From Chloroflexota bacterium (lineage in GTDB: Bacteria; Chloroflexota; Limnocylindria; Limnocylindrales; CSP1-4), in NCBI GenBank assembly GCA_017881915.1, contig JADGQK010000006.1, forward strand, positions 1 to 61,240: 61,240 nt of DNA, written 5' to 3'. Shown in pieces: positions 2,193 to 13,239 of this stretch. Position numbers and translations under genes: made by a program. A model generated the notes under the pieces. That model searched no databases. It was not told the DNA's origin and worked only from the letters and a program-made list of their open reading frames with translations. Position 1 is the stretch's first letter. Every line of letters begins with the position of its first letter.

Positions 2193-2942
2193 CTACATCA
2201 TCACCAGGCCGCCGTCGACGGCCAGCACCTGGCCGGTGATGTAGGCCGCCTCGTCCGACGCGAGGAAGGCCACGGCATTGGCAACCTCGTCGGCCGTGCC
2301 GAAGCGGCCGAGCGGCGTCGCGGCGGTGATCTGGGCGAGCAGCGCCTCAGGCAAATCCTGGGTCAGCTCGGTCAGGACGAAGCCCGGCGCCACCGCATTA
2401 GCCGTGATCCCGCGGCTGGCCAGCTCGCGCGCCGTGGCCTTGGTCAGGCCGATCAACCCCGCCTTGGCCGCCGAGTAGTTCGCCTGGCCGGTCTGGCCGG
2501 CCTGGCCGGAGACGCTCGTGATGTTGATGATCCGGCCACGCCTGGCCTTGAGCATCGACCGGGTGACCGCCTTCGTCGCGTAGAACGCCCCGAACAGGTT
2601 CGTCTCGAGGACCTCGCGCCACGCGTCGACGCTCATCCGCATGATCAGGTCGTCCCTGGTGATCCCGGCGTTGTTGACCAGGATGTCGACCTTGCCGTAT
2701 GCCTCGAGCGCGGCCTTGACCAGGCTCTCGGCCGCCGCCGGATCGGCGACGTCGCCCTGGTGGGCGATCGCCCGGCGACCGATGGCCTCGACCGCGGCCA
2801 CCGTGTCGGCCGCCGCCAGGGCGTTGCCGCGGAAGCTGAAGGCGATATCGGCACCCTGCCCGGCGAGCCGGAGGACGATCGCCCGCCCGATCCCGCGTGA
2901 GCCCCCGGTGACCACGGCGCAGCGGCCGGACAGATCGATCAT
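2193..2942 (-). CDS. fabG: 3-oxoacyl-ACP reductase
   Basis: TGGSRGIG, NNAGITRD, YSAAK motifs; ATG at 2942 after AGGAG. Confidence 0.95.
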   Translation of the reverse strand: MIDLSGRCAVVTGGSRGIGRAIVLRLAGQGADIAFSFRGNALAAADTVAAVEAIGRRAIAHQGDVADPAAAESLVKAALEAYGKVDILVNNAGITRDDLIMRMSVDAWREVLETNLFGAFYATKAVTRSMLKARRGRIINITSVSGQAGQTGQANYSAAKAGLIGLTKATARELASRGITANAVAPGFVLTELTQDLPEALLAQITAATPLGRFGTADEVANAVAFLASDEAAYITGQVLAVDGGLVMM

Positions 2943-2976
2943 GGCTGATCTCCTCGAGGAGCTGCCGGGTCGCCGC

Positions 2977-4176
2977 TCAGCGCGGCGTCGGGTGGGCCGC
3001 CGGTTCGGGTTCGCCGGGGACGACGTCGGACAGGTCGAGCGGGACGGGACCGGGTCGGGCAAGGATCTCGGCAAGGGCGTCAGGGATCGGGTCGACCGAG
3101 TCCCAATCGACCGGCGGGCGGACCCGGATCGAGTCCGGCGACACGGCTTCGCCGAGGGTGCCGCGGGCAGGATCTGCGGTCCACTCGATCGCCACCGCGC
3201 CGGAGGTGAAGCCCGCCCCGAAGGCAACGATGACGATCCGCCCGCCCTTCCTGATCCGGCCGCTGTTGGCCGCCTCGGCCAGGGCAATCGGGATCGAGGC
3301 GGCAGAGGTGTTGCCGTAGCGGTCAACGTTCACGAACATCCGGTCCATCGACAGGTCGAGGCCCCTGGCCACCGCCTCGATGATCCGCACGTTGGCCTGG
3401 TGGGGAATGATCAGGTCGATGTCGGCCAGTTGCAGGCCGGCGTGGTCGATCGCGGCCAGCGCCGTGCTGACCAGGGTCCGCGTCGCGAAACGGTATGTTT
3501 CGCGACCCTCCATCCGGATGTAGTGCTCGCCCCGGGCGATCGTTTCGGCCGACGGCGGGCTCTTCGAACCGCCTGACGGCAGCCAGATCATGTAGGCGCC
3601 CTGGGGTTCGGTGGTCAACTCGATTCCGAGGCCGCCGCCGGGCTCGTTGGACGCCGACAGGACCACCGCCCCGGCGCCGTCGCCGAACAGGATGCAGGTG
3701 TTGCGGTCCGTGTAGTCGAGGAAGCGCGTGAGCAGCTCCGCGCCGATCACGAGGACGTGACGGGCCATCCCGCTCGTGATGTAGGCCTGCGCCGTCGCAT
3801 AGCCGTAGACGAAGCCCGAGCAGGCGGCCGCGATGTCCATCGCCACGGCGCGGGTGTTGCCGATCGCCTCCTTGACGAGCGCGGCGGTGGCCGGCATCCA
3901 GTAGTCGGGTGTGAGCGTGGCGAGCAGGATCAGGTCGATCTCATCCGCGCCGATCCCGGCCACCGCGATGGCCCGTTTCGCGGCCACGGCCGCCATCGAG
4001 GCCGTGGTCTCGTGGGCCGCGGCGACCCGCCGCTCACGAATACCCGTCCGGCTCACGATCCACTCGTCGGACGTGTCGACCATCCGCTCGAGATCGGCGT
4101 TGGTCAGGACGCCGGCCGGGGCATACCGGCCCCAGCCGGTCAGGTGGGCGAAGCGGGGGCGCGAGTCCACGGTCAC
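2977..4176 (-). CDS. fabH: beta-ketoacyl-ACP synthase III with C-terminal extension
   Basis: AACSGF, PHQAN, GNTSAAS triad motifs. Confidence 0.95.
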   Translation of the reverse strand: MTVDSRPRFAHLTGWGRYAPAGVLTNADLERMVDTSDEWIVSRTGIRERRVAAAHETTASMAAVAAKRAIAVAGIGADEIDLILLATLTPDYWMPATAALVKEAIGNTRAVAMDIAAACSGFVYGYATAQAYITSGMARHVLVIGAELLTRFLDYTDRNTCILFGDGAGAVVLSASNEPGGGLGIELTTEPQGAYMIWLPSGGSKSPPSAETIARGEHYIRMEGRETYRFATRTLVSTALAAIDHAGLQLADIDLIIPHQANVRIIEAVARGLDLSMDRMFVNVDRYGNTSAASIPIALAEAANSGRIRKGGRIVIVAFGAGFTSGAVAIEWTADPARGTLGEAVSPDSIRVRPPVDWDSVDPIPDALAEILARPGPVPLDLSDVVPGEPEPAAHPTPR

Positions 4177-4730
4177 AGGGGCTCCACCTCGACGAGTGGC
4201 TGGCGAGCCTTGACCAGCTGGCCGCTCTCCGCGACCACCTTGACGACCCGTCCGGCCAGGTCCGACTTGATCTCATTGAACAGCTTCATCGCCTCGATCA
4301 GGCCGATCACCTGCCCGATCGCAACCTCGCCCCCGGCCTGGACGTAGGCTGCCGAGCCGGGAGCGGGCGAGGCATAGAAGATCCCGGTGAGCGGCGCCTT
4401 GACCGACGGGCGGGCGACGTTGGCACCTGTTCCAGCCGAGCCCCTGGCTCCGTCGGCCACGGGAGGCGCCACCTCGGCCGAGCCGGGATCGCCGGCCGAG
4501 GCGGAGAGCCGCAACGCGGCCGGCTTGCGCAGGACCAGGCCGGTCCCGCCAGCCTCCACTTCGAGCTCGGTCAGCTCGCTTCGTTCGAGCAGCGCAGCGA
4601 GCCGATCGACCAGGCCCAACAGCGATCGATCGGCGCCGGCCAGCTCGGTGGCCGCCGGTGTCGCCGACCCGGCTGGGGTCGCTGCGGGTCCGGCAGCGAC
4701 TGCCGTGTCCGGGGCGCGGTCGTCGGTCAT
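4173..4730 (-). CDS. accB: Biotin carboxyl carrier protein
   Basis: APLTGIFY and EAMKLFNEI biotinylation motif. Confidence 0.92.
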   Translation of the reverse strand: MTDDRAPDTAVAAGPAATPAGSATPAATELAGADRSLLGLVDRLAALLERSELTELEVEAGGTGLVLRKPAALRLSASAGDPGSAEVAPPVADGARGSAGTGANVARPSVKAPLTGIFYASPAPGSAAYVQAGGEVAIGQVIGLIEAMKLFNEIKSDLAGRVVKVVAESGQLVKARQPLVEVEPL

Positions 4731-5986
4731 CCCGCGTACCGGGTGAAGATCAGGGCCGTGTTCTGGCCACCGAATCCGAACGAGTTGCTGAGGGCCGTCC
4801 TGATCTCACGATGGCCCGCCACGAGGGGCGTCAGGTCGAGCCCTTCGGCCAGTGGGTCGGGGTCGGTCAGGTTGACCGTCGGTGGCACGATCCCGGTCCG
4901 GATCGACTGGATCGTGACCACGGCCTCGATCGCTCCGGCGGCGCCCAGGGTGTGGCCGAGCATCGACTTGTTGGCGGTCACCGCCACCTCCGGCGCCCGG
5001 TCGCCGAAGATCGTCCGGATGGCCATCAGCTCGGCCTTGTCGCCCTCCGGCGTCGAGGTTGCGTGGGCATTGAGGTGATCGATCGCGGCCGCCGTGAGGC
5101 CCGCCTTCTCGAGCGCTCGGCGAGCGGCGCGGACGGCGCCGCTGCCACCGGCGGCCGGCAGGGTCATGTGGGAGGCGTCTGCGGTCGCGCCGTAGCCGAC
5201 CAGCTCGGCCAGTGGTTCGGCACCACGAGCCTGGGCGTGCTCGAGCTCTTCGAGGACGAGGATCCCGCAGCCCTCGCCGATCACGAAGCCATCACGCCCG
5301 GCGTCGAACGGGCGCGAGGCCCCGGCCGGGTCGTCATTCCGGGTGGACAGGGCGCGCATCGCGCAGAAGCCGGCGACGAGCGCCTCCTGGACCCCGGCCT
5401 CGGCACCGCCGGCGACCATCACGTCAGCGTCACCACGCCGGATGATCTCCCACGACTCACCGATCGCGTGACCGCCGGTGGCGCAGGCCGACACGATCGC
5501 GAAGTTCGGCCCAAGGGCTCCGAACGTGATCGACAGCTGACCGGCTCCGACGTTCGGGATCGCCATCGGCACGAAGAATGGGCTGACCCGGTCGGGACCG
5601 CGGGTGGCGTTGATCGTGATCTGTTCGCACAGCGTGTTCACGCCGCCGAGCCCGGTCCCAAGGATGATCCCGGTCGCCTCAGCGAGGCTGCCTTCGAGGC
5701 GGCCCGGCAGCCCGGCCGAATCGAGAGCCTCGCGGGCCGCGACCAGGCCGAACTGGGTGTAGCGGTCCGCGCGGCGGATCTCCTTGCGGTCAAGGACATG
5801 GCTGGGGTCGAAGTCCAGCACCGAGGCGGCGATCTTCGAATCGGTCCGCTCAGGGTCGAACGAATCGATCCGGCGGACGCCTGAGCGGCCGGCCACGAGA
5901 CCGGTCCAGGTGGCCTCGACGCCGATCCCCACGGCCGACACGACGCCCATCCCGGTGACGACGACGCGGCGCTCGGACCGGCTCAC
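4727..5986 (-). CDS. fabF: beta-ketoacyl-ACP synthase II
   Basis: SACATG, NAHATST, GHTLGAAG, SNSFGFGG. Confidence 0.95.
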   Translation of the reverse strand: MSRSERRVVVTGMGVVSAVGIGVEATWTGLVAGRSGVRRIDSFDPERTDSKIAASVLDFDPSHVLDRKEIRRADRYTQFGLVAAREALDSAGLPGRLEGSLAEATGIILGTGLGGVNTLCEQITINATRGPDRVSPFFVPMAIPNVGAGQLSITFGALGPNFAIVSACATGGHAIGESWEIIRRGDADVMVAGGAEAGVQEALVAGFCAMRALSTRNDDPAGASRPFDAGRDGFVIGEGCGILVLEELEHAQARGAEPLAELVGYGATADASHMTLPAAGGSGAVRAARRALEKAGLTAAAIDHLNAHATSTPEGDKAELMAIRTIFGDRAPEVAVTANKSMLGHTLGAAGAIEAVVTIQSIRTGIVPPTVNLTDPDPLAEGLDLTPLVAGHREIRTALSNSFGFGGQNTALIFTRYAG

Positions 5987-6726
5987 CGGACGAGCTTCCC
6001 GGTGCGCACCGTGGCCGCCCGATAGACGTCACCGGGCAGGCCTCGAACCGACAGCGCGTTGCTCACTGCCAGGGCGTCGAACTCGGCCCGTCGGATCTCG
6101 CCGCCGACCTGCCCGGCATCGACATCGACCAGGGCCCATGACGCCGTCGGCTCGCCGTCGAAGACGTAGCCGGCGCTGCCGGCATTGACGATCAGCTTCC
6201 AGCCCAGGTCGCGGACCTCGGGCAGGTGGGTATGGCCGCAGCAGATGACCCGGGCATCGGTCCGCGCTGCCCGCTCGATCGTCACGTTCGGGTCGAGGGC
6301 ACCGTCGAAGCCCTCGGTCTGCGAGCCGGGCGAGGCGTGGGTCGCCAGGAGGAGCATCTCCCCGACCCGCAGCCGGCGTTCGGACGGCAGGCGGCGGAGC
6401 CAATCGATCCGCTCCTGGCCAAGCTCGTCATGGGCCCACTCGGCCGCGGATCGGATCGACTCGGGAACGCCATCCATCAGCGACGGGAAGGCCGCCGCGT
6501 AGTCGAAGTCGGCCACGGCGATGTCGGTATTGCCGGCCACGACGAGCGCGCCCTCGGATTCGAGCTCGCGGATCGCGTCAACGACACCGACCGGGTCGGG
6601 GCCGTTGAGGACGAGGTCGCCGCAGATCATCACGCCGTCGGGCTGTTCCTTCTTCAGCGCAGCCCGGACCGCCTCGAGCGCGAGAAGGTTGCCGTGGACG
6701 TCGCTGAGGACCGCGATCCGGGCCAT
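5983..6726 (-). CDS. Calcineurin-like metallophosphoesterase
   Basis: SDVHGN, GDLV, GNTD, HASP, GHTH, NAGS motifs. Confidence 0.9.
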   Translation of the reverse strand: MARIAVLSDVHGNLLALEAVRAALKKEQPDGVMICGDLVLNGPDPVGVVDAIRELESEGALVVAGNTDIAVADFDYAAAFPSLMDGVPESIRSAAEWAHDELGQERIDWLRRLPSERRLRVGEMLLLATHASPGSQTEGFDGALDPNVTIERAARTDARVICCGHTHLPEVRDLGWKLIVNAGSAGYVFDGEPTASWALVDVDAGQVGGEIRRAEFDALAVSNALSVRGLPGDVYRAATVRTGKLVR

Positions 6727-7235
6727 CAGCGCAGCACCGAGGCATCCGGGATGATGAAGCTGAGCGTGGCCTGGCAGGCGACCTCACCGTCCACGGTGGC
6801 CGTCCCCAGGCCGCGGCCGAAGCGTCGTCCGAGCTTGTCCATCGTGACCTCGAGTCGGAGGATGTCGCCCGGGCTGACGACGCGCTTGAAGCGGCAGTCG
6901 TCGATCCCGCCGAACAGGCCGATCCGGTCACCGAACCCGGGTTGCTTGGCCACGAAGACGGCCATCGTCTGGGCCAGCGCCTCCACCTGAAGCACGCCGG
7001 GCATCACCGGCAGCCCGGGAAAGTGGCCCTGGAAGAACCACTCCGTGGCCGTCACCGCCTTGATTCCGACGATCCGGCGGGCCGCCTCGTCGTACTCGAC
7101 GATCCGGTCGACAAGCAGGAACGGCCAACGATGCGGAATCAGTCCCTCGATCTCACGGATCGTATGGACGATGGCAGGCGAGGTTTCGGTCACGGGCGGC
7201 TCCATGGGACTGGCTTGGGGAAGTGTGCCGGGCAC
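6726..7235 (-). CDS. fabZ: 3-hydroxyacyl-ACP dehydratase
   Basis: IPHRWPFLLVDRI, FQGHFPG, PGVLQVEALAQ; exact start uncertain. Confidence 0.95.
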   Translation of the reverse strand: MPGTLPQASPMEPPVTETSPAIVHTIREIEGLIPHRWPFLLVDRIVEYDEAARRIVGIKAVTATEWFFQGHFPGLPVMPGVLQVEALAQTMAVFVAKQPGFGDRIGLFGGIDDCRFKRVVSPGDILRLEVTMDKLGRRFGRGLGTATVDGEVACQATLSFIIPDASVLR

Positions 7236-7279: not shown

Positions 7280-8647
7280 TCATCGTGCAGCTGCAGCCAG
7301 GAAGGCGGCCGAACCGACCCGGTCCACGAAGTTCGTGGTCATCTGCCCGGCCAGGAAGATCTCATTGCGGAGGAGGGCCTGGTGGATCGCGATATTCGTG
7401 ACGACGCCGTCGACCACCAGCTCGTCGAGGGCAACCAACGAACGGGCAATCGCAGTCGGACGGTCCGGTCCCCACACGATCACCTTGCCCAGGAGCGAGT
7501 CGTAGAACGATGGCACTTCGTAGCCGGTGAACAGATGGCTGTCAACCCGGACGCCCGGGCCGCCGGGGGCCACATAGCGCTCGACAACGCCAGTGCTCGG
7601 CCGGAAGTCGTGCCGGCTGTCCTCGGCATTGATCCGGAATTCCAGGGCATGGCCGCGCACGCTCACGTCAGCCTGGCTGAAGCCGAGGGGCTCCCCCGCT
7701 GCGATCCGGATCTGGGTCACGACGAGGTCGATCCCGGTCAGCATCTCGGTCACCGGGTGCTCGACCTGGATGCGGCAGTTGATCTCGATGAAATAGGCGT
7801 TGCCGACGGGATCGACGAGAAACTCGAGGGTACCCACGTTCTCGTAGCCGGCCGCGACGACGGCCTTGAGGGCCCGCTCTGCGAGCTCCTTCCGGGCGGC
7901 GTCGCCGAGAGCCGGCGTGGGGGCCTCCTCGAGAAACTTCTGGTGACGACGCTGGACGGAGCAGTCGCGCTCGCCCAGATGGACCCCGTGGCCGAACCGG
8001 TCGACCGCCACCTGGACCTCTACGTGGCGGTTGTCGTCGAGCCATTTCTCCAGGTACAGCGAGTCGTCGCCAAACGCCGCGCGGGCTTCCGAGCGGCAGA
8101 TCTTGAGGGCGGCCTCGAGCTCGCGCGGCGTGCGCACCATGCGCATGCCCTTGCCACCACCACCGGCCGACGGCTTGATCAGGACCGGATAACCGATCCG
8201 TTGCGCCTCTTCCAGCCCATGGAGGTCGTCGCGGAGCATCCCGTTCGAACCGGGGATCGTGGCCAGGCCGTGGGCGCCGAGCAGCCGGCGGGTCGCCTCC
8301 TTGCTGGCGAAGCGCTCGAGGACCTGGGGCGGTGGTCCAATGAACGTGAGGCGATGGGCGCGGACCACCTCGGCAAACCCTTCGTCCTCGGACAGGAAGC
8401 CGTAGCCGGGATGGATCGCGTCGCAGCCGGAGACGATCGCGGCGCTGATCACCGCCGGCGCCAGCAGATAGCTCCGCTTGGCATCGGCCGGGCCGATGCA
8501 AATCGCCTCGTCCGCCTGCTGCACCGCGAGGCTCTCGCGGTCGGCTTCGCTGTAGGCCACGACCGCCTCCACGCCAAGGGTCCGGCAGGCGCGCAGGATC
8601 CGGACGGCGATCTCGCCCCGGTTGGCGATCAGGATCTTCGAGAACAT
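7280..8647 (-). CDS. accC: Acetyl-CoA carboxylase biotin carboxylase subunit
   Basis: ANRGEIA, HPGYGFLSE, GGGGKGMR, ERDCSVQRRHQK. Confidence 0.95.
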   Translation of the reverse strand: MFSKILIANRGEIAVRILRACRTLGVEAVVAYSEADRESLAVQQADEAICIGPADAKRSYLLAPAVISAAIVSGCDAIHPGYGFLSEDEGFAEVVRAHRLTFIGPPPQVLERFASKEATRRLLGAHGLATIPGSNGMLRDDLHGLEEAQRIGYPVLIKPSAGGGGKGMRMVRTPRELEAALKICRSEARAAFGDDSLYLEKWLDDNRHVEVQVAVDRFGHGVHLGERDCSVQRRHQKFLEEAPTPALGDAARKELAERALKAVVAAGYENVGTLEFLVDPVGNAYFIEINCRIQVEHPVTEMLTGIDLVVTQIRIAAGEPLGFSQADVSVRGHALEFRINAEDSRHDFRPSTGVVERYVAPGGPGVRVDSHLFTGYEVPSFYDSLLGKVIVWGPDRPTAIARSLVALDELVVDGVVTNIAIHQALLRNEIFLAGQMTTNFVDRVGSAAFLAAAAR

Positions 8648-9183
8648 CAGGCGTCCCGCCCGGTTCGCTCGACCGGTGTCGAGATCAGCTCGATCCAGAC
8701 GAGCTGCTGGCCGTACTCGACCGCGTCGCCGCTCTCGACGAGCCCGGCGCCGACGATCCCGTTCACCGGCGCAACGACCTCCTGGGTGATGCCCAGCACA
8801 TCGACGCTGCCGATCCGGTCACCGGTTCGCACCCGCGACCCCGAGCTGATTTCGGGCCGCGGATGGAAGATCCCGACGGCCGGCGAGGTGGCTGCCAGGC
8901 GGTATGGACCGTGGGCCACATCGGCACCTGCCGAATGAGCGTGGTCGCCATGGCCGGCCTGGCCGGGTGCGGGTTTCGCGCCGCGCCCGGAGGGAGCCCT
9001 GGGGCCCGCCGTCGAAGCATCGGCCGACCGGCGGAGGCGAACCTTCCAGTCGCCCTCGCGTACCTCCAGCTCGGCCAGCCCGGTCGCGCCGAGCTTGGCA
9101 ATCAGCGCAGGCAGGAGCTCGTCGGCAAGCCCCTCGATCTGGGCGTGGTCGGTGAGGCGGGCGACCTCATCGCGGTTGGGCAC
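8647..9183 (-). CDS. BCCP-like biotinyl/lipoyl-domain protein lacking the biotinylated lysine
   Basis: BCCP architecture (LAELEVREG N-terminus, SPAVGIF, GDAVEYGQQL) but DVLG in place of EAMK. Confidence 0.8.
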   Translation of the reverse strand: MPNRDEVARLTDHAQIEGLADELLPALIAKLGATGLAELEVREGDWKVRLRRSADASTAGPRAPSGRGAKPAPGQAGHGDHAHSAGADVAHGPYRLAATSPAVGIFHPRPEISSGSRVRTGDRIGSVDVLGITQEVVAPVNGIVGAGLVESGDAVEYGQQLVWIELISTPVERTGRDA

Positions 9184-9186
9184 GGA

Positions 9187-10218
9187 TCAGACCTCCTCGC
9201 GAGCCGGCGGCTCGTCGTATGATCGCGCTGGATTGGGACCCGTCCCGGTGGCCGCTCGGGTCGCGCCTCCGAGCAGGTTTCGAAGGCGATCGGTGAAGCC
9301 CGGCCGTTCGGGGATCGCGGCTGGCTCGACGTCGATGGTGGTGAACGCGCCCAGGGCACGATAGCGCCGATAGCGCGCCTCGACCAGCTCATCGAGCGGC
9401 CGGCGCTCAAGCGCGTCAAGGTGGCGCAGGACCGCGGCCTTGACCATGGCCGCCGTCGCCGGATGATCCGTGTGGGCGCCGTTGTGCGGTTCCGGAATCA
9501 CCTCGTCCACGACACCCAGCTGGAGCTGGTCCGCCGCCGTCATGCGCATCGCCAGGGCGGCCGCGGGCGCCTGGTCGGGCGTCCGCCACAGGATCGAGGC
9601 ACAGCCCTCCGGGCTGATCACCGAGTAGACCGCATTCTCCAGGGCGAGCACGACATCGCCGACGGCGATCGCCAAGGCGCCACCCGAGCCACCTTCGCCG
9701 GTGATCACGGTCACGATCGGGGTGCGCAGCCGGGTCATCAGCGCAATCGAGCGGGCAATCGCCTCGGCGATGCCGCGCTCCTCCGAATCGGCCCCGGGAT
9801 GGGCGCCGGGCACGTCGACGAACGTCACGATCGGCAATCCCAGCCGCTCGCCCAGCTCCATCACCCGCATGGCCTTGCGATAGCCCTCGGGGTGGGGCAT
9901 CCCGAAGTTGCGCCGAATGTTCTCGTCCGTCTCGGCGCCCTTCTGCTGGCCGACGACCACGACCCGTCGGCCGTCGATCCGGGCCAGTCCGGCGACGATC
10001 GCCGGGTCATCGCCGAAGAAGCGGTCGCCGTGCAGCTCGACGAAGTCGGCGGCGATCAGGGCCAGCAACTCCAGCGTGCGCGGGCGGTGGAGATTGCGAG
10101 CGAGCTGGACCCGCGCCCAGACGGCGGCCGTCGGGTCGGCTGGGGACTCCGGCTCGCGCGGAAGATCGGTCGCCGAACTCCCCCTGCGTCCGGTCCGGCC
10201 GATCAGGCGGTCAACCAC
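9187..10218 (-). CDS. accA: Acetyl-CoA carboxylase carboxyltransferase alpha subunit
   Basis: ELHGDR, RNFGMPHPEGYRKA, GEGGSGGALA, YSVISPEGCA. Confidence 0.95.
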   Translation of the reverse strand: MVDRLIGRTGRRGSSATDLPREPESPADPTAAVWARVQLARNLHRPRTLELLALIAADFVELHGDRFFGDDPAIVAGLARIDGRRVVVVGQQKGAETDENIRRNFGMPHPEGYRKAMRVMELGERLGLPIVTFVDVPGAHPGADSEERGIAEAIARSIALMTRLRTPIVTVITGEGGSGGALAIAVGDVVLALENAVYSVISPEGCASILWRTPDQAPAAALAMRMTAADQLQLGVVDEVIPEPHNGAHTDHPATAAMVKAAVLRHLDALERRPLDELVEARYRRYRALGAFTTIDVEPAAIPERPGFTDRLRNLLGGATRAATGTGPNPARSYDEPPAREEV

Positions 10219-11152
10219 GGTCCGCCTCGCCTGACTCGGGGATCACCCGTTCGGCCAGGGCGCTCAGGAACGACAGCGGCCGGAACGCCGGGATGTTGCC
10301 ATTGTCCGCGGACGCATCGGGCACCTCGGGAGCCATCAGGGCGACCAGCCGGATCAGCTCGTCGCGCAGGTCGGAGCGATGGACGACCCGGTCGACGAAG
10401 CCGTGGTTGAACAGGAACTCGGAGCGCTGGAAGCCCTCGGGCAGCTCGCCCTGGATCGTGCCGGCACTGACCCGTGCCCCGGCGAAGCCGATCAGCGCAT
10501 TCGGCTCGGCCAGGTTGACGTCGCCGAGCGCGGCAAATGAGGCGAAGACGCCGCCCGTCGTGGGGTCGCTCATCACCGAGATCAGGGGCACGCCGGCGAG
10601 GCGCAGCCGTTCGGTCGCGGCGACCGTCTTGACCAGCTGCATGAGCGAAAGCGTGCCTTCCTGCATCCGGGCTCCACCAGAGGCCGACACGATGACGAGT
10701 GGGACGCGCCGATCAAGTGCCGCTTCGGCCGAGCGGGCGACCTTCTCGCCGACGACGCTGCCCATCGAGCCGCCCATGAACGAGAAGTCCATGACGCAGA
10801 TGACGACCTGCCGGCCACCGATCGAGCCGAGGCCCCAAACCGCCGCGTCGCGCAATCCGGTCGTCGCCTGGGCGGCCGCGACCCGATCGGGATACGCCTT
10901 GAGGTCGACGAAGCCGAGCGGATCGAGCGACTGGAGGCCCGGGTCCTGCTCCACGAAGCTGTCCGGGTCGAGCAGCAGGTTGAGCCGGACCGGGGCAGAC
11001 AACCGGAAGTGGTGGCCGCAATTCGAGCACACCCGGAGGGCCTTCTCGAGCTGCTTGTTGAAGAGCATCTCCTGGCACGCCGGGCACTGGGTCCACAGGT
11101 CGGATGGGTAGGTGTCTCGACGTTGGCGAAACGAAGGGAGCTTGATCGGCAT
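10211..11152 (-). CDS. accD: Acetyl-CoA carboxylase carboxyltransferase beta subunit
   Basis: C4 zinc finger, GGSMGSVVGEK, SGGARMQEG, PTTGGV. Confidence 0.95.
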   Translation of the reverse strand: MPIKLPSFRQRRDTYPSDLWTQCPACQEMLFNKQLEKALRVCSNCGHHFRLSAPVRLNLLLDPDSFVEQDPGLQSLDPLGFVDLKAYPDRVAAAQATTGLRDAAVWGLGSIGGRQVVICVMDFSFMGGSMGSVVGEKVARSAEAALDRRVPLVIVSASGGARMQEGTLSLMQLVKTVAATERLRLAGVPLISVMSDPTTGGVFASFAALGDVNLAEPNALIGFAGARVSAGTIQGELPEGFQRSEFLFNHGFVDRVVHRSDLRDELIRLVALMAPEVPDASADNGNIPAFRPLSFLSALAERVIPESGEADRG

Positions 11153-11685
11153 CAGGCAAGACCACCCTGGTGGCCGGCCCGTCCATGGGCGGCCCGGATC
11201 GCCCGGACCATGGGATGGACCGGCCGGCTCAGGCGCCAGGCGACGAGCGCCGCACCGGCCAGTGAGATCGCGGCTGAGGTCAGGGCCCCGCCGATCAGCA
11301 GTGGCCGGGCGCGGATCCCGAAGGGATCGTCGTCGTCGATGAGGCGGACGGGATCGAGCAGATCGACCGGGTCGAACGCACCAGTGCGAGTCGCGACCGG
11401 CGGTTGGGGAATCCTCAACCCAGCCCCGGCAGCGGCCGGCAGCCGCAGGGCATCGCCGGCATCGGCCAGTCGGCGGGCGAGACGCTCCTCGAAGCGGAAC
11501 GACGGGTGGACCCGAACGAGATGGGACGATAGCCGCTCCGCGGTCGCGCGAAGCTCGGCGTCGAGTCGCGGATCGTGCAGCACGGCCACGGCGCCCCGTT
11601 CGCGGGCAACGAGGATCGATTCGAGATAGCGATCGACCCGGAGTGCCTCGACCTCGGGCTCGCCGCGATCGGCCTCGAGGGTCAC
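11152..11685 (-). CDS. Hypothetical single-pass membrane protein, probable anti-sigma factor
   Basis: Overlaps the ECF sigma stop; PSFRFEERLARRL helix and C-terminal hydrophobic segment. Confidence 0.55.
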   Translation of the reverse strand: MTLEADRGEPEVEALRVDRYLESILVARERGAVAVLHDPRLDAELRATAERLSSHLVRVHPSFRFEERLARRLADAGDALRLPAAAGAGLRIPQPPVATRTGAFDPVDLLDPVRLIDDDDPFGIRARPLLIGGALTSAAISLAGAALVAWRLSRPVHPMVRAIRAAHGRAGHQGGLA

Positions 11686-12302
11686 CAGCGTCGGCCGCCG
11701 AGGTCCCGGGCGACAGCGCGCAAGCCGCGGTGGATCAGGACCCGCACGGCGCCCTCCGAGCGGCCCAGGACGCCGGCGATCTCGGCCGTGGACATCTCCT
11801 CGACGAAGCGCAGGACGAGGGCCCGCCGTCGCTCGGGCGGCAGCCTCCCGACGGCGGCCCAGGCCGCGCCGGCCTCCTGGCGGCGGCTGACGTCGCCCTC
11901 CAGGTCGAGCGGATCGGCCACGATCGCAGCGTAGTCGAGCGGTGCGACAGGGTGGCGCCGCCGGCCGCGCTGGATATTGGCCACGACGTTGCGGGCGATC
12001 CGGAAGAGCCAGACCCGGAACGTCGAGGCGCCTTCGCCATCGACCGGCCGGGCCCGCTCCTCGAAGCGCGACAGGGCGCCGAGGGCGAGCAGGAACGTCC
12101 GCTCAGCGGCATCCTCGGCGTCGTGATGGCTGCCGAGCTCGTAGTAGGCGTAGCTGTACACCTGGGCCAGGTACTTCCGATAGAGGGCGTCGAACGCCGC
12201 CGGGTCGCGCAGGGCGGCCTCGACGAGGGCTCGATCGCGATCGAGATGGACGAGGCGGTGTTCCTCCTCCGCCTTCACTCTCCTGAACACCGGACGGGCC
12301 AC
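11682..12302 (-). CDS. ECF RNA polymerase sigma factor
   Basis: DAEDAAERTF, FRVWLFRIARN (region 2); EIAGVLGRSEGAVRVLIHRG (region 4). Confidence 0.92.
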   Translation of the reverse strand: MARPVFRRVKAEEEHRLVHLDRDRALVEAALRDPAAFDALYRKYLAQVYSYAYYELGSHHDAEDAAERTFLLALGALSRFEERARPVDGEGASTFRVWLFRIARNVVANIQRGRRRHPVAPLDYAAIVADPLDLEGDVSRRQEAGAAWAAVGRLPPERRRALVLRFVEEMSTAEIAGVLGRSEGAVRVLIHRGLRAVARDLGGRRW

Positions 12303-12306
12303 TGCG

Positions 12307-13239
12307 TTACACCCCGGCCGCGGGCACGTGCGGGCTCGCCGCCAGCCTGACGTGGCGGATCTCGCCGGTCAGGATCGTCCGTTCGCCGCCAGGCGCGGCA
12401 CGATCCTCGATCACGAGGCCGCCCGATCCTGCATCGACCCCGAGGGCGCGCGTGTCAAGCGACGTGCCGTCGGGCAGCTCGACCCGGATCGGCCGGCCGC
12501 TGGTGAGCTGGCGGCCGACCCAGTCGGCGATGTCGAAGTGGCCGCCGCGCAGGGCGATCGTACGTGCCTCAACCCGGTCGATGAACGCGGCGAACAGCGC
12601 CGGGAGGTCGATCGGCCGGCCGTTCGAGGCTACCTGCAGGCTGGTCATCGAGCCGGCCAGCTCGGCCGGGAAGTCGACTGCCGCCCAGTCGCCGTTCAGG
12701 CCGAGGCCGATGATCACCCGCGGGTCCGCCGTTCCAAGCCCGATCGTCTCGCCCAGGACACCGCCCAGCTTACGCACGTCCGACGGCTCGTCGAGGAGCC
12801 GGCCGGCGGCGGCGCCCGTGGCGTTGGCCAGGCGGACGCCGGTCGGGCCGGTCGTTTCGATCACGAGGTCGTTCGGCCACTTCAGCCGGATCGCCCGATC
12901 CGGCAGGCCGGCGACCTCCTCCGCGGCGTCGGCCATCGCCAGCGAGACGATCGCGGCCAGGCGCCAGGCCTTGTCGGGCTCGAGCCAGGTCGGCCGAAAC
13001 CCGATCGAGCAGAGCAACCCTGCGCCGCGCGGCGCCAGCCAGGTCCGCCCGTTGCGGCCGCGGCCGGCGGTCTGCTCATCCGCGACGGCCAGGCAGACCT
13101 CGGGCGTGCCCTCGGCCAGCCAGGCTCGGACGACGTCATTCGTCGAAGCTACGCTCGGGAAGCGCTGCTGGCGGCTGGTGAACGGAACGTCCCCGGCCGG
13201 CCTGGCAGCCGTCGTCGGCTGCGTCTCGACGTTGCTCAA
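12307..13239 (-). CDS. birA: Biotin--[acetyl-CoA carboxylase] ligase (no N-terminal HTH)
   Basis: [28 protein letters not shown]. Confidence 0.92.

Follow-up and report, generated by a model that had tools for sequence, protein, structure and literature searches.

Non-biotinylated look-alikes of BCCP (biotin carboxyl carrier protein), the BADCs, are treated in the literature consulted as a peculiarity of the plastid ACCase of plants and algae, and the available text of one such paper calls them 'unique to the plant htACCase' (PMC11926652). They are reported to bind both BC and BCCP, as 'glue' or as an inhibitor (PMC11926652; PMC13585458), and whether they activate or inhibit ACCase is disputed. 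For the canonical bacterial protein, the accessible parts of the structural reports describe E. coli BCCP bound to BC helix aa 64-73 in 4HR7 (bioRxiv 10.64898/2025.12.30.697075) and, in filaments of E. coli ACC, parked at a non-catalytic site; for its first 30 residues an oligomerising alpha/beta/beta motif is predicted (PMC11160672). In the literature searched, which came mostly from outside the subscription journals, no bacterial precedent for a Lys-less BCCP was found. Here, we describe such a protein, termed X, which is encoded between accA and accC in a Chloroflexota genome of the class Limnocylindria.

The window, that is, the whole stretch of DNA analysed (61,240 nucleotides; contig JADGQK010000006.1), carries X within a string of acc and fab genes. 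All genomes of this class that were examined are metagenome-assembled. The genes, all on the reverse strand, are as follows.

12307..13239 (-): birA-like biotin protein ligase with no long N-terminal extension (Pfam BPL_LplA_LipB, residues 28-182)
11682-12302 (-): ECF-type sigma factor (Pfam Sigma70_r2/r4), between birA and accD
11152-11685 (-): putative anti-sigma, between birA and accD
10211..11152 (-): accD, carboxyltransferase beta with an N-terminal Zn ribbon (Pfam Carboxyl_trans and Zn_ribbon_ACC)
9187..10218 (-): accA, carboxyltransferase alpha (Pfam ACCA, 379 bits)
9192..9198 (-): GAGGAGG, a Shine-Dalgarno-like motif in the sequence of the accA end, 8 nt before the GTG of X
8647..9183 (-): gene X, a Lys-less BCCP paralogue identified by BCCP homology, GTG start, 178 aa
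7280..8647 (-): accC, biotin carboxylase, 455 aa (Pfam), the sole stand-alone BC in the genome
6726-7235 (-): fabZ (Pfam)
5983-6726 (-): metallophosphoesterase (Pfam)
4727-5986 (-): fabF (Pfam)
4173..4730 (-): true accB, 185 aa, with EAMKLF, between fabF and fabH (TIGR00531, 97.4 bits)
2977-4176 (-): fabH (Pfam)
within 2193-3326 (-): fabG (Pfam); the downstream fatty-acid genes span 2193..7235

The sequence-only reading had placed X directly before accC, in the usual accB slot, and a biotinylatable accB about 4 kb downstream. Both placements hold: the TGA of X and the ATG of accC overlap by 1 nt at 8647, and the distance to the Lys-bearing accB is 3.9 kb. The accA stop lies 3 nt ahead of the X start, a start position common to the orthologues in the alignment, and accD and accA overlap by 8 nt. 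X is apparently translationally coupled to accC. The gene order accD-accA-X-accC-fabZ...fabF-accB(K)-fabH is conserved, and in the 46 loci with all 12 genes present these are colinear. The birA-like ligase heads the conserved string, and the position of the sigma and anti-sigma genes between birA and accD is also conserved across loci. Directly upstream of X, accA was found in 78 of 80 loci, the other two being contig ends. Downstream, accC lies within 300 bp in 71 of the 80 loci and is separated from X by about 1 kb in seven, and fabD stands between X and accC in one sister-family locus. Evidence for expression of X is weak. Of the 24 listed runs, three were RNA libraries, and their shares of the sampled words were small; they gave a contig of 234 nt on X (8668-8901, 3 differences, depth 2) and one of 88 nt at 9118-9205 (2 differences), which extended over fewer than 31 letters of the accA side and was not counted as bridging. 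These low-depth contigs possibly come from DNA in the libraries and do not demonstrate transcription; the remaining parts of X were not covered, a gap that carries no weight.

X is a full-length BCCP homologue, and its parts were delimited as follows.

9028..9183 (-): residues 1-52, alpha/beta/beta motif at the N-terminus, with homology to the N-terminal domain of BCCP (AF2 model and alignment with 4hr7_B)
8908..9027 (-): residues 53-92, disordered, length-variable linker rich in His, Gly, Ala and Pro
8686..8907 (-): residues 93-166, biotinyl-domain-like barrel-sandwich without Lys and with a shortened thumb (AF2 and Foldseek)
8791..8793 (-): codon GGC of Gly131, at the biotinyl-Lys position in the hairpin VDVLGI (alignments)

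In the AF2 model, the N-terminal motif consists of a helix (residues 4-34) and a hairpin (38-51) with strands 38-43 and 46-51, and many of its columns are invariant in the orthologue alignment. Linker residues 55-88 have a pLDDT below 50, and linker length differs across alignments; 138 of 266 members of the X family have at least three His in the linker. The barrel-sandwich (residues 95-166) was modelled with a pLDDT above 94, and its top fold match in the PDB by Foldseek was 1bdo (TMt 0.82, rmsd 1.3 A), to which the biotinyl domain is 36% identical. TIGR00531 matched residues 26-165 with 48.5 bits, under its cut-off of 115.2; the Lys-bearing accB of the window is also under this cut-off. PF00364 (Biotin_lipoyl) gave 22.0 bits against a cut-off of 22.1 by hmmscan and 23.5 bits, over the cut-off, in the genome search; as modelled, X is clearly of the PF00364 fold. 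The TIGR00531 match, the 4hr7_B alignment, AF2 and Foldseek all agree with the earlier view that the full BCCP architecture of N-terminal domain, linker and biotinyl fold is kept.

The biotinyl-Lys of the (E/V)-A-M-K-(M/L) hairpin is absent from X. By BLASTP, residues 20-165 of X align with residues 33-183 of the neighbouring true AccB (29% identity, E 4e-09), which places RIGSVDVLGITQEV opposite VIGLIEAMKLFNEI and VDVLGI opposite EAMKLF, and so confirms that Gly131 stands in place of the biotinyl-Lys. The same register was obtained against E. coli BCCP (4hr7_B; query residues 26-165, E 1.8e-09), with EAMKM opposite VDVLGI. Compared with both proteins, X has a six-residue deletion at the 'thumb', which the sequence-only reading had missed; a loop of thumb length is kept in the alignment of some distant Lys-less relatives. 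Judged from these residues, X cannot be biotinylated and would be unable to shuttle carboxybiotin.

Gly occupies the acceptor column in 119 of the 120 best homologues, down to 44% identity, and in 79 of 79 informative genome loci, which puts the Gly131 observation far beyond chance; Lys is absent in 148 of the best 150 representatives of 50% clusters. The median dN/dS of X, taken over 12 non-overlapping pairs, was 0.20 over the full gene and 0.125 in each of the two folded domains, compared with 0.09 for accC, 0.12 for accA and 0.25 for accB (n=7), so that the folded domains of X are near accA and accC. One alignment was made without rows L073 and L066; a row had a stop codon. These results give good support for X as a conserved paralogue of BCCP that is kept by purifying selection.

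Two rival readings were considered at this point. One, raised as a risk together with the original observation, is that orthologues retain MK and this copy is a decaying accB duplicate, a pseudogene in the making. The sub-threshold scores against TIGR00531 and, marginally, PF00364 speak for this reading, but the reading frame is intact, X is conserved across the whole class and beyond, its motifs are invariant and both folded domains are constrained. With the Gly counts, the near absence of Lys from the cluster representatives and the low dN/dS, the pseudogene reading is refuted, and we give it practically no credence. The other reading is that X is still a carrier, with a prosthetic group or another modification at a different residue. 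We considered it only since the carrier fold of X is intact, and found no support for it: X has no Lys in residues 93-166, hairpin Lys is absent in 265 of 266 X-family members and C-domain Lys is absent in 197 of the 266, while Lys does not exceed 11% of the members in any C-domain column. In addition, the thumb of X is truncated. An alternative acceptor Lys is rejected on the lack of any conserved Lys column, and a carrier function at another site is very improbable.

Modelling of X with AccC had been suggested as a check on a role in the complex. The AccC-X prediction scored 0.79, compared with 0.00 for the best of three controls; among solved complexes 116 of 157 attain this mark, among mismatched pairs 2 of 215. 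At least 51% of contacts were shared between the runs, with a partner pLDDT of at least 61. The predicted interface comprises residues 102-105, 129-130, 132 and 154-159 of X, including the family-invariant V103, G104, L130, V155, E156, G158 and Q159, and residues 34, 49-53, 59, 64-73 and 98 of AccC. The model docks X at the site used by E. coli BCCP, but since the similar complex 4HR7 has been solved, the prediction may echo the known BCCP-BC complex rather than binding retained by this copy.

Lys-less relatives of X occur phylum-wide in Chloroflexota. Outside the class of the window they are found in the slot pepP-efp-X-xseA; in this respect, the description of X as lying inside the acc operon stands for Limnocylindria but not for the rest of the phylum. 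In five Chloroflexota families the same efp-xseA slot holds a Lys-bearing accB, which indicates that the slot marks 'accB' and not another pathway. True accB genes are commonly linked to efp. The window's own genome has xseA immediately after efp, with the slot empty; X appears, from this synteny, to have moved into the acc operon from the efp slot. In each of the five wholly searched genomes where the slot gene is Lys-less, a fabF-linked accB with Lys is present as well, and none of the five wholly searched genomes with Lys in the slot gene has a fab-linked copy. The fab-cluster accB keeps EAMK(L/V)F, with the Lys present in 60 of 60 loci, and its products form their own clade (SH-aLRT 99, 15 rows), nested among the Lys-bearing BCCPs and apart from the Lys-less group. 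For this tree, two over-extended accB rows (628 and 792 aa) were cut to the last 200 residues, and L115, P0316 and P0387, three Lys-less rows that were long or odd, were left out. At the acceptor column, different residues are found in different parts of the phylum (G, N, R, A, M or Q), so the hairpin tip may not be under one common constraint. Among the clusters and genome contigs searched, Lys-less matches to X came from Chloroflexota only. A query with P0267 (IEAMRL) returned, among the 120 matches listed, 89 BCCPs with Lys, which come from many phyla, and 31 Lys-less proteins, and one of the Lys-less matches listed, P0291 (EALRK), is labelled Armatimonadetes.

These distributions can be joined into one history for many Chloroflexota, in which a dead carrier would have become an obligatory fifth subunit of the heteromeric ACC. 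The gene in the place of the canonical efp-linked accB, its positional orthologue, would have lost its Lys after a second, fab-linked accB took over catalysis, would then have persisted for hundreds of millions of years in a structural or regulatory role, as a BC-binding subunit, and would have been re-inserted between accA and accC in one class (Limnocylindria). As a joint claim this is tentative, and we rate it somewhat short of an even chance.

For X itself, we lean slightly towards a non-catalytic ACC subunit that would hold or organise the BC-BCCP sub-complex, a functional reading that draws only on synteny, translational coupling and complex prediction. X is made from the accD-accA-X-accC string, with apparent coupling to accC translation. 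Its C-domain would dock on the non-catalytic BCCP 'parking' site of AccC, at N-domain helix 64-73, and its N-terminal motif may co-oligomerise with that of the true AccB; docked in this way, X would keep the sub-complex together or ordered but shuttle no carboxyl groups. Stoichiometric assembly, as a scaffold, seems the most likely role, and attenuation, through competition with holo-AccB, would be a close alternative. As an outright negative regulator, X would follow the inhibitor model, one of the two proposed for plant BADC in the available text (PMC11926652; PMC13585458), and would compete with holo-AccB for AccC and lower ACC flux; the His-rich linker, responding to pH or metal, or relative abundance could provide the control. 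The predicted docking of X on the BCCP site of AccC and the frequency of linker His in the family agree with this. However, the tight coupling to accC and the fixed operon position suggest constitutive, roughly stoichiometric synthesis of X rather than conditional control, and the AccC docking site is non-catalytic in E. coli, so its occupancy need not block catalysis. We regard negative regulation as a minority possibility.

A function unrelated to heteromeric ACC is also to be weighed against the assembly role: X might partner a fused BC-BCCP, act as a ligase decoy, be a transcriptional autoregulator through its N-terminal domain, or have a role tied to efp and xseA. Across most of the phylum X stands in pepP-efp-X-xseA and not with acc genes, and outside the class of the window, where X adjoins efp and xseA and no acc gene, such a role is possible. 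In addition, the window genome has two further biotin carboxylases, both fused to carrier domains, and birA heads the gene string. Against this, the efp slot also houses Lys-bearing accB genes, and in the class of the window X lies between accA and accC in 78 of 78 loci with upstream room. Since only 27 residues precede the catalytic domain of the ligase, a DNA-binding repressor form of it is unlikely, and so is a decoy or repressor link for X. Overall, a function apart from heteromeric ACC is unlikely. The original interpretation survives in its structural and evolutionary half, a conserved non-biotinylatable BCCP paralogue in the acc operon beside a Lys-bearing accB, while the family as a whole is not confined to that operon.

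If X is a true bacterial, operon-encoded counterpart of the BADCs, the pseudo-carrier principle would have evolved at least twice and would not be a plant invention. The acc operon with X offers a four-plus-one-gene system that could be reconstituted in E. coli to test scaffold against inhibitor, that is, glue against brake. X also fits the recent structural work on the E. coli enzyme and would retain the two features stressed there for BCCP, the non-catalytic parking site and the oligomerising N-terminus (PMC11160672). There is also a systematic annotation error: homologues of X are named 'acetyl-CoA carboxylase biotin carboxyl carrier protein' yet are unable to carry biotin, which matters for metabolic reconstructions of Chloroflexota.

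Among known systems, the canonical bacterial BCCP (AccB; E. coli 1BDO and 4HR7) shares with X the three-part architecture, the fold and, in the predicted complex, the same BC helix, whereas X has no acceptor Lys, a shortened thumb and a score below the family cut-off. The fab-cluster AccB of Chloroflexota is a paralogue in the same genome whose N-terminal motif aligns over residues 20-52 of X; it differs in its retained acceptor motif and its separate clade. The epsilon subunits found in acyl-CoA carboxylases of actinobacteria differ from BCCP in fold and family and are not its homologues. They are small, non-catalytic and described as 'glue' for holoenzyme assembly (PMC11926652, citing Gago et al.), and X may be likened to them by that description only. 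In the same phylum, the ACC of Chloroflexus aurantiacus, with a fused BC-BCCP (BC1), also partitions carrier functions in an unusual way, but only Lys-bearing carriers are described in the available text of that report, in which we found no passage on a Lys-less BCCP (PMC11077971). The closest likeness is to the BADCs of plants and green algae: like X, Arabidopsis BADC1-3 of the plastid heteromeric ACCase are BCCP homologues without the biotinyl-Lys motif beside a true BCCP, and in X, too, BC binding is predicted, at the BCCP site. In contrast to the BADCs, X is bacterial, is encoded in an operon between accA and accC, and has so far been seen in Chloroflexota, with Gly at the Lys position (elsewhere N, R, A, M or Q) and the thumb lost in the class of the window. 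The earlier label 'BADC-like' is apt for a Lys-less BCCP homologue beside a true BCCP, but the Chloroflexota-only matches make common descent with plant BADCs unlikely; X probably arose independently, and 'BADC-like' is best read as an analogy.

The BCCP paralogue without the biotin-accepting lysine (hereafter X) lies in a tightly packed string of genes, all on the minus strand, as defined by ORFs and Pfam matches.

Genes of the acc/fab string in the window
12307-13239, minus strand: birA-like biotin ligase
11682-12302, minus strand: ECF-type sigma factor
11152-11685, minus strand: putative anti-sigma factor (weak DUF6251 match)
10211-11152, minus strand: accD
9187-10218, minus strand: accA
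8647-9183, minus strand: X (GTG start, 178 aa)
7280-8647, minus strand: accC
6726-7235, minus strand: fabZ
5983-6726, minus strand: calcineurin-like metallophosphoesterase
4727-5986, minus strand: fabF
4173-4730, minus strand: accB (true AccB, Lys-bearing)
2977-4176, minus strand: fabH
After fabH, last of the string, minus strand: fabG

This gene order confirms the sequence-only reading, which had placed X directly before accC with a separate Lys-bearing accB 4 kb downstream. The GTG of X follows the end of accA by 3 nt, with a GAGGAGG motif 8 nt upstream of the GTG, and the TGA of X and the ATG of accC have one A in common; the evidence for expression of X is weak. Three biotin carboxylases (BC) were found in the genome of the window, of which this accC is the only stand-alone one, and the fab-linked accB is the sole stand-alone Lys-bearing carrier. 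Each of the other two, on contigs C77 and C17, is fused in one open frame with carrier domains (696 and 781 aa) and presumably belongs to acyl-CoA or other carboxylases. All 46 fully colinear loci keep the sigma/anti-sigma pair where it stands in the window (11152-12302, after the biotin ligase gene and before accD), a placement which suggests that the acc/fab string has transcriptional control of its own.

BLASTP aligned residues 20-165 of X with residues 33-183 of the neighboring AccB (29% identity, E 4e-09), and in this register VDVLGI lies opposite EAMKLF, with Gly in place of the biotinyl-Lys as had been read from the sequence. The best PDB match of X was full-length E. coli BCCP (4hr7_B; query 26-165, E 1.8e-09), with the register unchanged, and the BCCP model TIGR00531 matched residues 26-165 at 48.5 bits versus a cut-off of 115.2 (97.4 for the true AccB). 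In an AlphaFold2 model built from an alignment of 23 family members (mean pLDDT 76.6), residues 4-34 form a helix and 38-51 a beta-hairpin, 55-88 are disordered, and 95-166 fold into a barrel-sandwich domain whose pLDDT exceeds 94. A Foldseek comparison with PDB structures put the E. coli BCCP biotinyl domain 1bdo at the top (TMt 0.82, rmsd 1.3 A, 36% identity), ahead of further biotinyl domains. The claim that the rest of the BCCP architecture is kept therefore held by BLASTP, TIGR00531 and the predicted fold, but a six-residue gap was found in X at the BCCP 'thumb' in the alignments to AccB and E. coli BCCP. Residues 93-166 of the window's protein contain no Lys at all; among 266 family members, the C-domain is without any Lys in 197 and the hairpin in 265. 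The linker (window 8908-9027) is His-rich in many members; in the window's family, for example, a GHAGHGH-like stretch recurs. At least three His were found in 138 of the 266 linkers and a loose His motif in 68, and the linker could act as a pH or metal sensor.

The sequence-only reading had named retention of the Lys in orthologues as a sign that this copy is simply decaying. A word-indexed protein search with X gave 1628 proteins at E <= 0.001, and Gly occupies the Lys column in 119 of the best 120, down to 44% identity; the single exception (P0043) looks frameshifted. When one genome per species was scanned, at least 600 stretches matched, 584 of them encoding a relative. Among the best 80 of these at least 600 loci, Gly was present in 79 of 79 covering the position (L075 is cut by a contig end), and the downstream accB was Lys-bearing in all 60 that reach it. 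A profile of 27 Lys-less members was also run over 1.84 billion cluster representatives (50% clusters), and the best 150 of 164 matches (E <= 1e-30) had Gly in 145, Arg in 3 and Lys in 2. The two Lys cases are longer proteins matched in several stretches (P0140, 546 aa; P0252, 281 aa), which may be tandem or fused carrier forms. Median dN/dS (Nei-Gojobori, 12 pairs with no locus in common) was 0.20 for X and 0.125 for both its N-domain and its C-domain, compared to 0.09 for accC, 0.12 for accA and 0.25 for accB (7 pairs), and the invariant columns of X concentrate in the N-terminal motif, ATSPAVG, GD..G.VD.LG and VEYGQ. Taken together, the conserved Gly, the invariant columns and the low dN/dS rule out a decaying gene, and X is a real, conserved gene.

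The position of X is conserved as well. In the best 80 loci, accA is directly upstream in 78 (the remaining 2 lack contig room). In 71 loci accC begins no more than 300 bp downstream, in 7 a gap of about 1 kb precedes it, and 2 lack room. The whole run of 12 genes, birA to fabH, is colinear in 46 loci. The gap of about 1 kb occurs in L068, L072, L073 and L076-L079; an intervening fabD was read only in the sister-family locus L105 (1713-2678, between X and accC; Acyl_transf_1, 153 bits). The metallophosphoesterase between fabZ and fabF is kept in loci of the window's family and of a sister family with genomes of only 1.1-1.4 Mb, and in seven loci of a third family, those with the gap of about 1 kb, fabF comes next after fabZ without a metallophosphoesterase match. 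The small genomes (G128, G261, G301 and G349; L111-L114), whose family belongs to the same taxonomic order as the window, keep Lys-less X between accA and accC, with no sigma/anti-sigma pair between birA and accD. Three contigs are labelled Verrucomicrobiia (L016), Methylomirabilota (L045) and Solirubrobacterales (L071); in L016 and L045 X is flanked by the gene order of the window's class, upstream and downstream alike, and L071, a short contig, reads accD-accA-X, so faulty binning or labelling probably explains these names.

A sample of 401 Chloroflexota genomes included 23 others from the window's family, and every one of them matched X, 21 at 150-281 bits and two (G373 and G074) in two pieces only; the genomes seen from the window's class are all metagenome bins. 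The inspected loci of sister families in this class likewise have Lys-less X adjoining accA, and accC follows in 11 of 13; among these 13, no accC was seen in L115 and no X match in L116. Outside the class, all 11 loci inspected carry a Lys-less BCCP-like gene, 10 of them in the order pepP-efp-X(-xseA) and one without efp. A second set of 40 further loci was split, with 24 Lys-less (N, G, R, A, M or Q in the Lys column; pepP, efp or xseA beside 21) and 16 Lys-bearing, of which 2 are fabF-linked and 12, from five families, lie in the efp/xseA slot. The latter identify the pepP-efp-_-xseA position as an accB slot, whose occupant, judged from these sequences, has lost its Lys in many lineages. 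Whole-genome searches showed a Lys-bearing AccB linked fabF(-accB-)fabH in five of five genomes with a Lys-less slot and in none of five with a Lys-bearing slot; four of the latter have no other stand-alone BCCP, and the fifth has two short Lys-bearing carriers beside carboxyltransferase-like genes. In the genomes searched, a biotinylatable copy thus always accompanies the Lys-less one. In the window's own genome (L229; contig C154, 1501-3516), efp (1501-2055) is followed directly by xseA (ORF start 2068, similarity from 2260), which shows that the slot is empty there, X being in the acc operon.

It is position, not the tree, that suggests X to be the orthologue of the slot accB. In a quick-method, unrooted tree of short domains (123 rows, three long or odd rows left out), a single branch divided all 64 Lys-less rows from the Lys-bearing side; its support is weak (SH-aLRT 25; 87 for the Lys-bearing side). 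The fab-linked AccBs formed a clade of 15 rows (99), and 9 of 10 Lys-bearing slot proteins shared a clade (96) placed amid BCCPs from other phyla. With no root and such short domains, the tree is compatible with one loss of the Lys but does not establish it. The Atlas neighbors of X were from Chloroflexota only. A Lys-less relative labelled Armatimonadetes (P0291) reads EALRK, and some Lys-less matches of the P0267 search (P0267, P0270, P0316 and P0387 among them) have the otherwise canonical motifs IEAMRL, IEAMRI, VEAMNL and IESMRL; in another tree, P0316 and P0387 were nested within Lys-bearing BCCPs, and P0267 and P0270 grouped with the Lys-less proteins. Additional independent losses of the Lys, or errors in sequencing, may account for these near-canonical proteins and P0291.

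When the complex of AccC with X was predicted (alignments of 21 and 23 rows), each of three runs scored 0.79, versus 0.00 for the best of 3 controls. Of 157 solved complexes, 116 reach that mark, as do 2 of 215 mismatched pairs; the runs shared at least 51% of their contacts, and partner pLDDT was at least 61. Because a similar complex has already been solved, this pass points to likeness, which the predictor may have taken from that structure, rather than to proof that X binds. The confident predicted contacts are residues 102-105, 129-130, 132 and 154-159 of X, which take in the invariant columns V103, G104, L130, V155, E156, G158 and Q159, and residues 34, 49-53, 59, 64-65, 67-69, 71-73 and 98 of AccC. 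According to a preprint, the BC helix aa 64-73 is bound by E. coli BCCP in 4HR7 (10.64898/2025.12.30.697075). A second preprint, on the E. coli ACC filament, has BCCP resting at this non-catalytic site and also against the N-terminus of AccD; the first 30 residues of BCCP are predicted there to adopt an alpha/beta/beta motif and, through it, to oligomerise into a barrel (PMC11160672). Both the predicted BC-docking site and the N-terminal alpha/beta/beta motif are kept in X. X is best read as a putative non-catalytic, BADC-like ACC subunit, which would sit on the BCCP docking site of AccC and/or join the N-terminal oligomer together with AccB. An assembly subunit would be the most likely role, and a competitor of holo-AccB a less likely one; we infer both the step from predicted docking to binding and that from binding to a scaffold.

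Full-text searches of a literature with few subscription journals turned up no description of a bacterial Lys-less BCCP, nor did passages of a paper on Chloroflexus ACC (PMC11077971). X lacks the acceptor Lys, the feature by which a BCCP is defined. Its nearest known counterparts are the BADCs of plants and algae. These BCCP homologues lack the biotinylation motif and bind both BC and BCCP, and their role, as 'glue' or inhibitor, is disputed (PMC11926652, PMC13585458, PMC11889953); one of these papers calls BADCs unique to the plant enzyme (PMC11926652). Compared by description, descent aside, X is likewise a BCCP homologue without a biotinylation motif.
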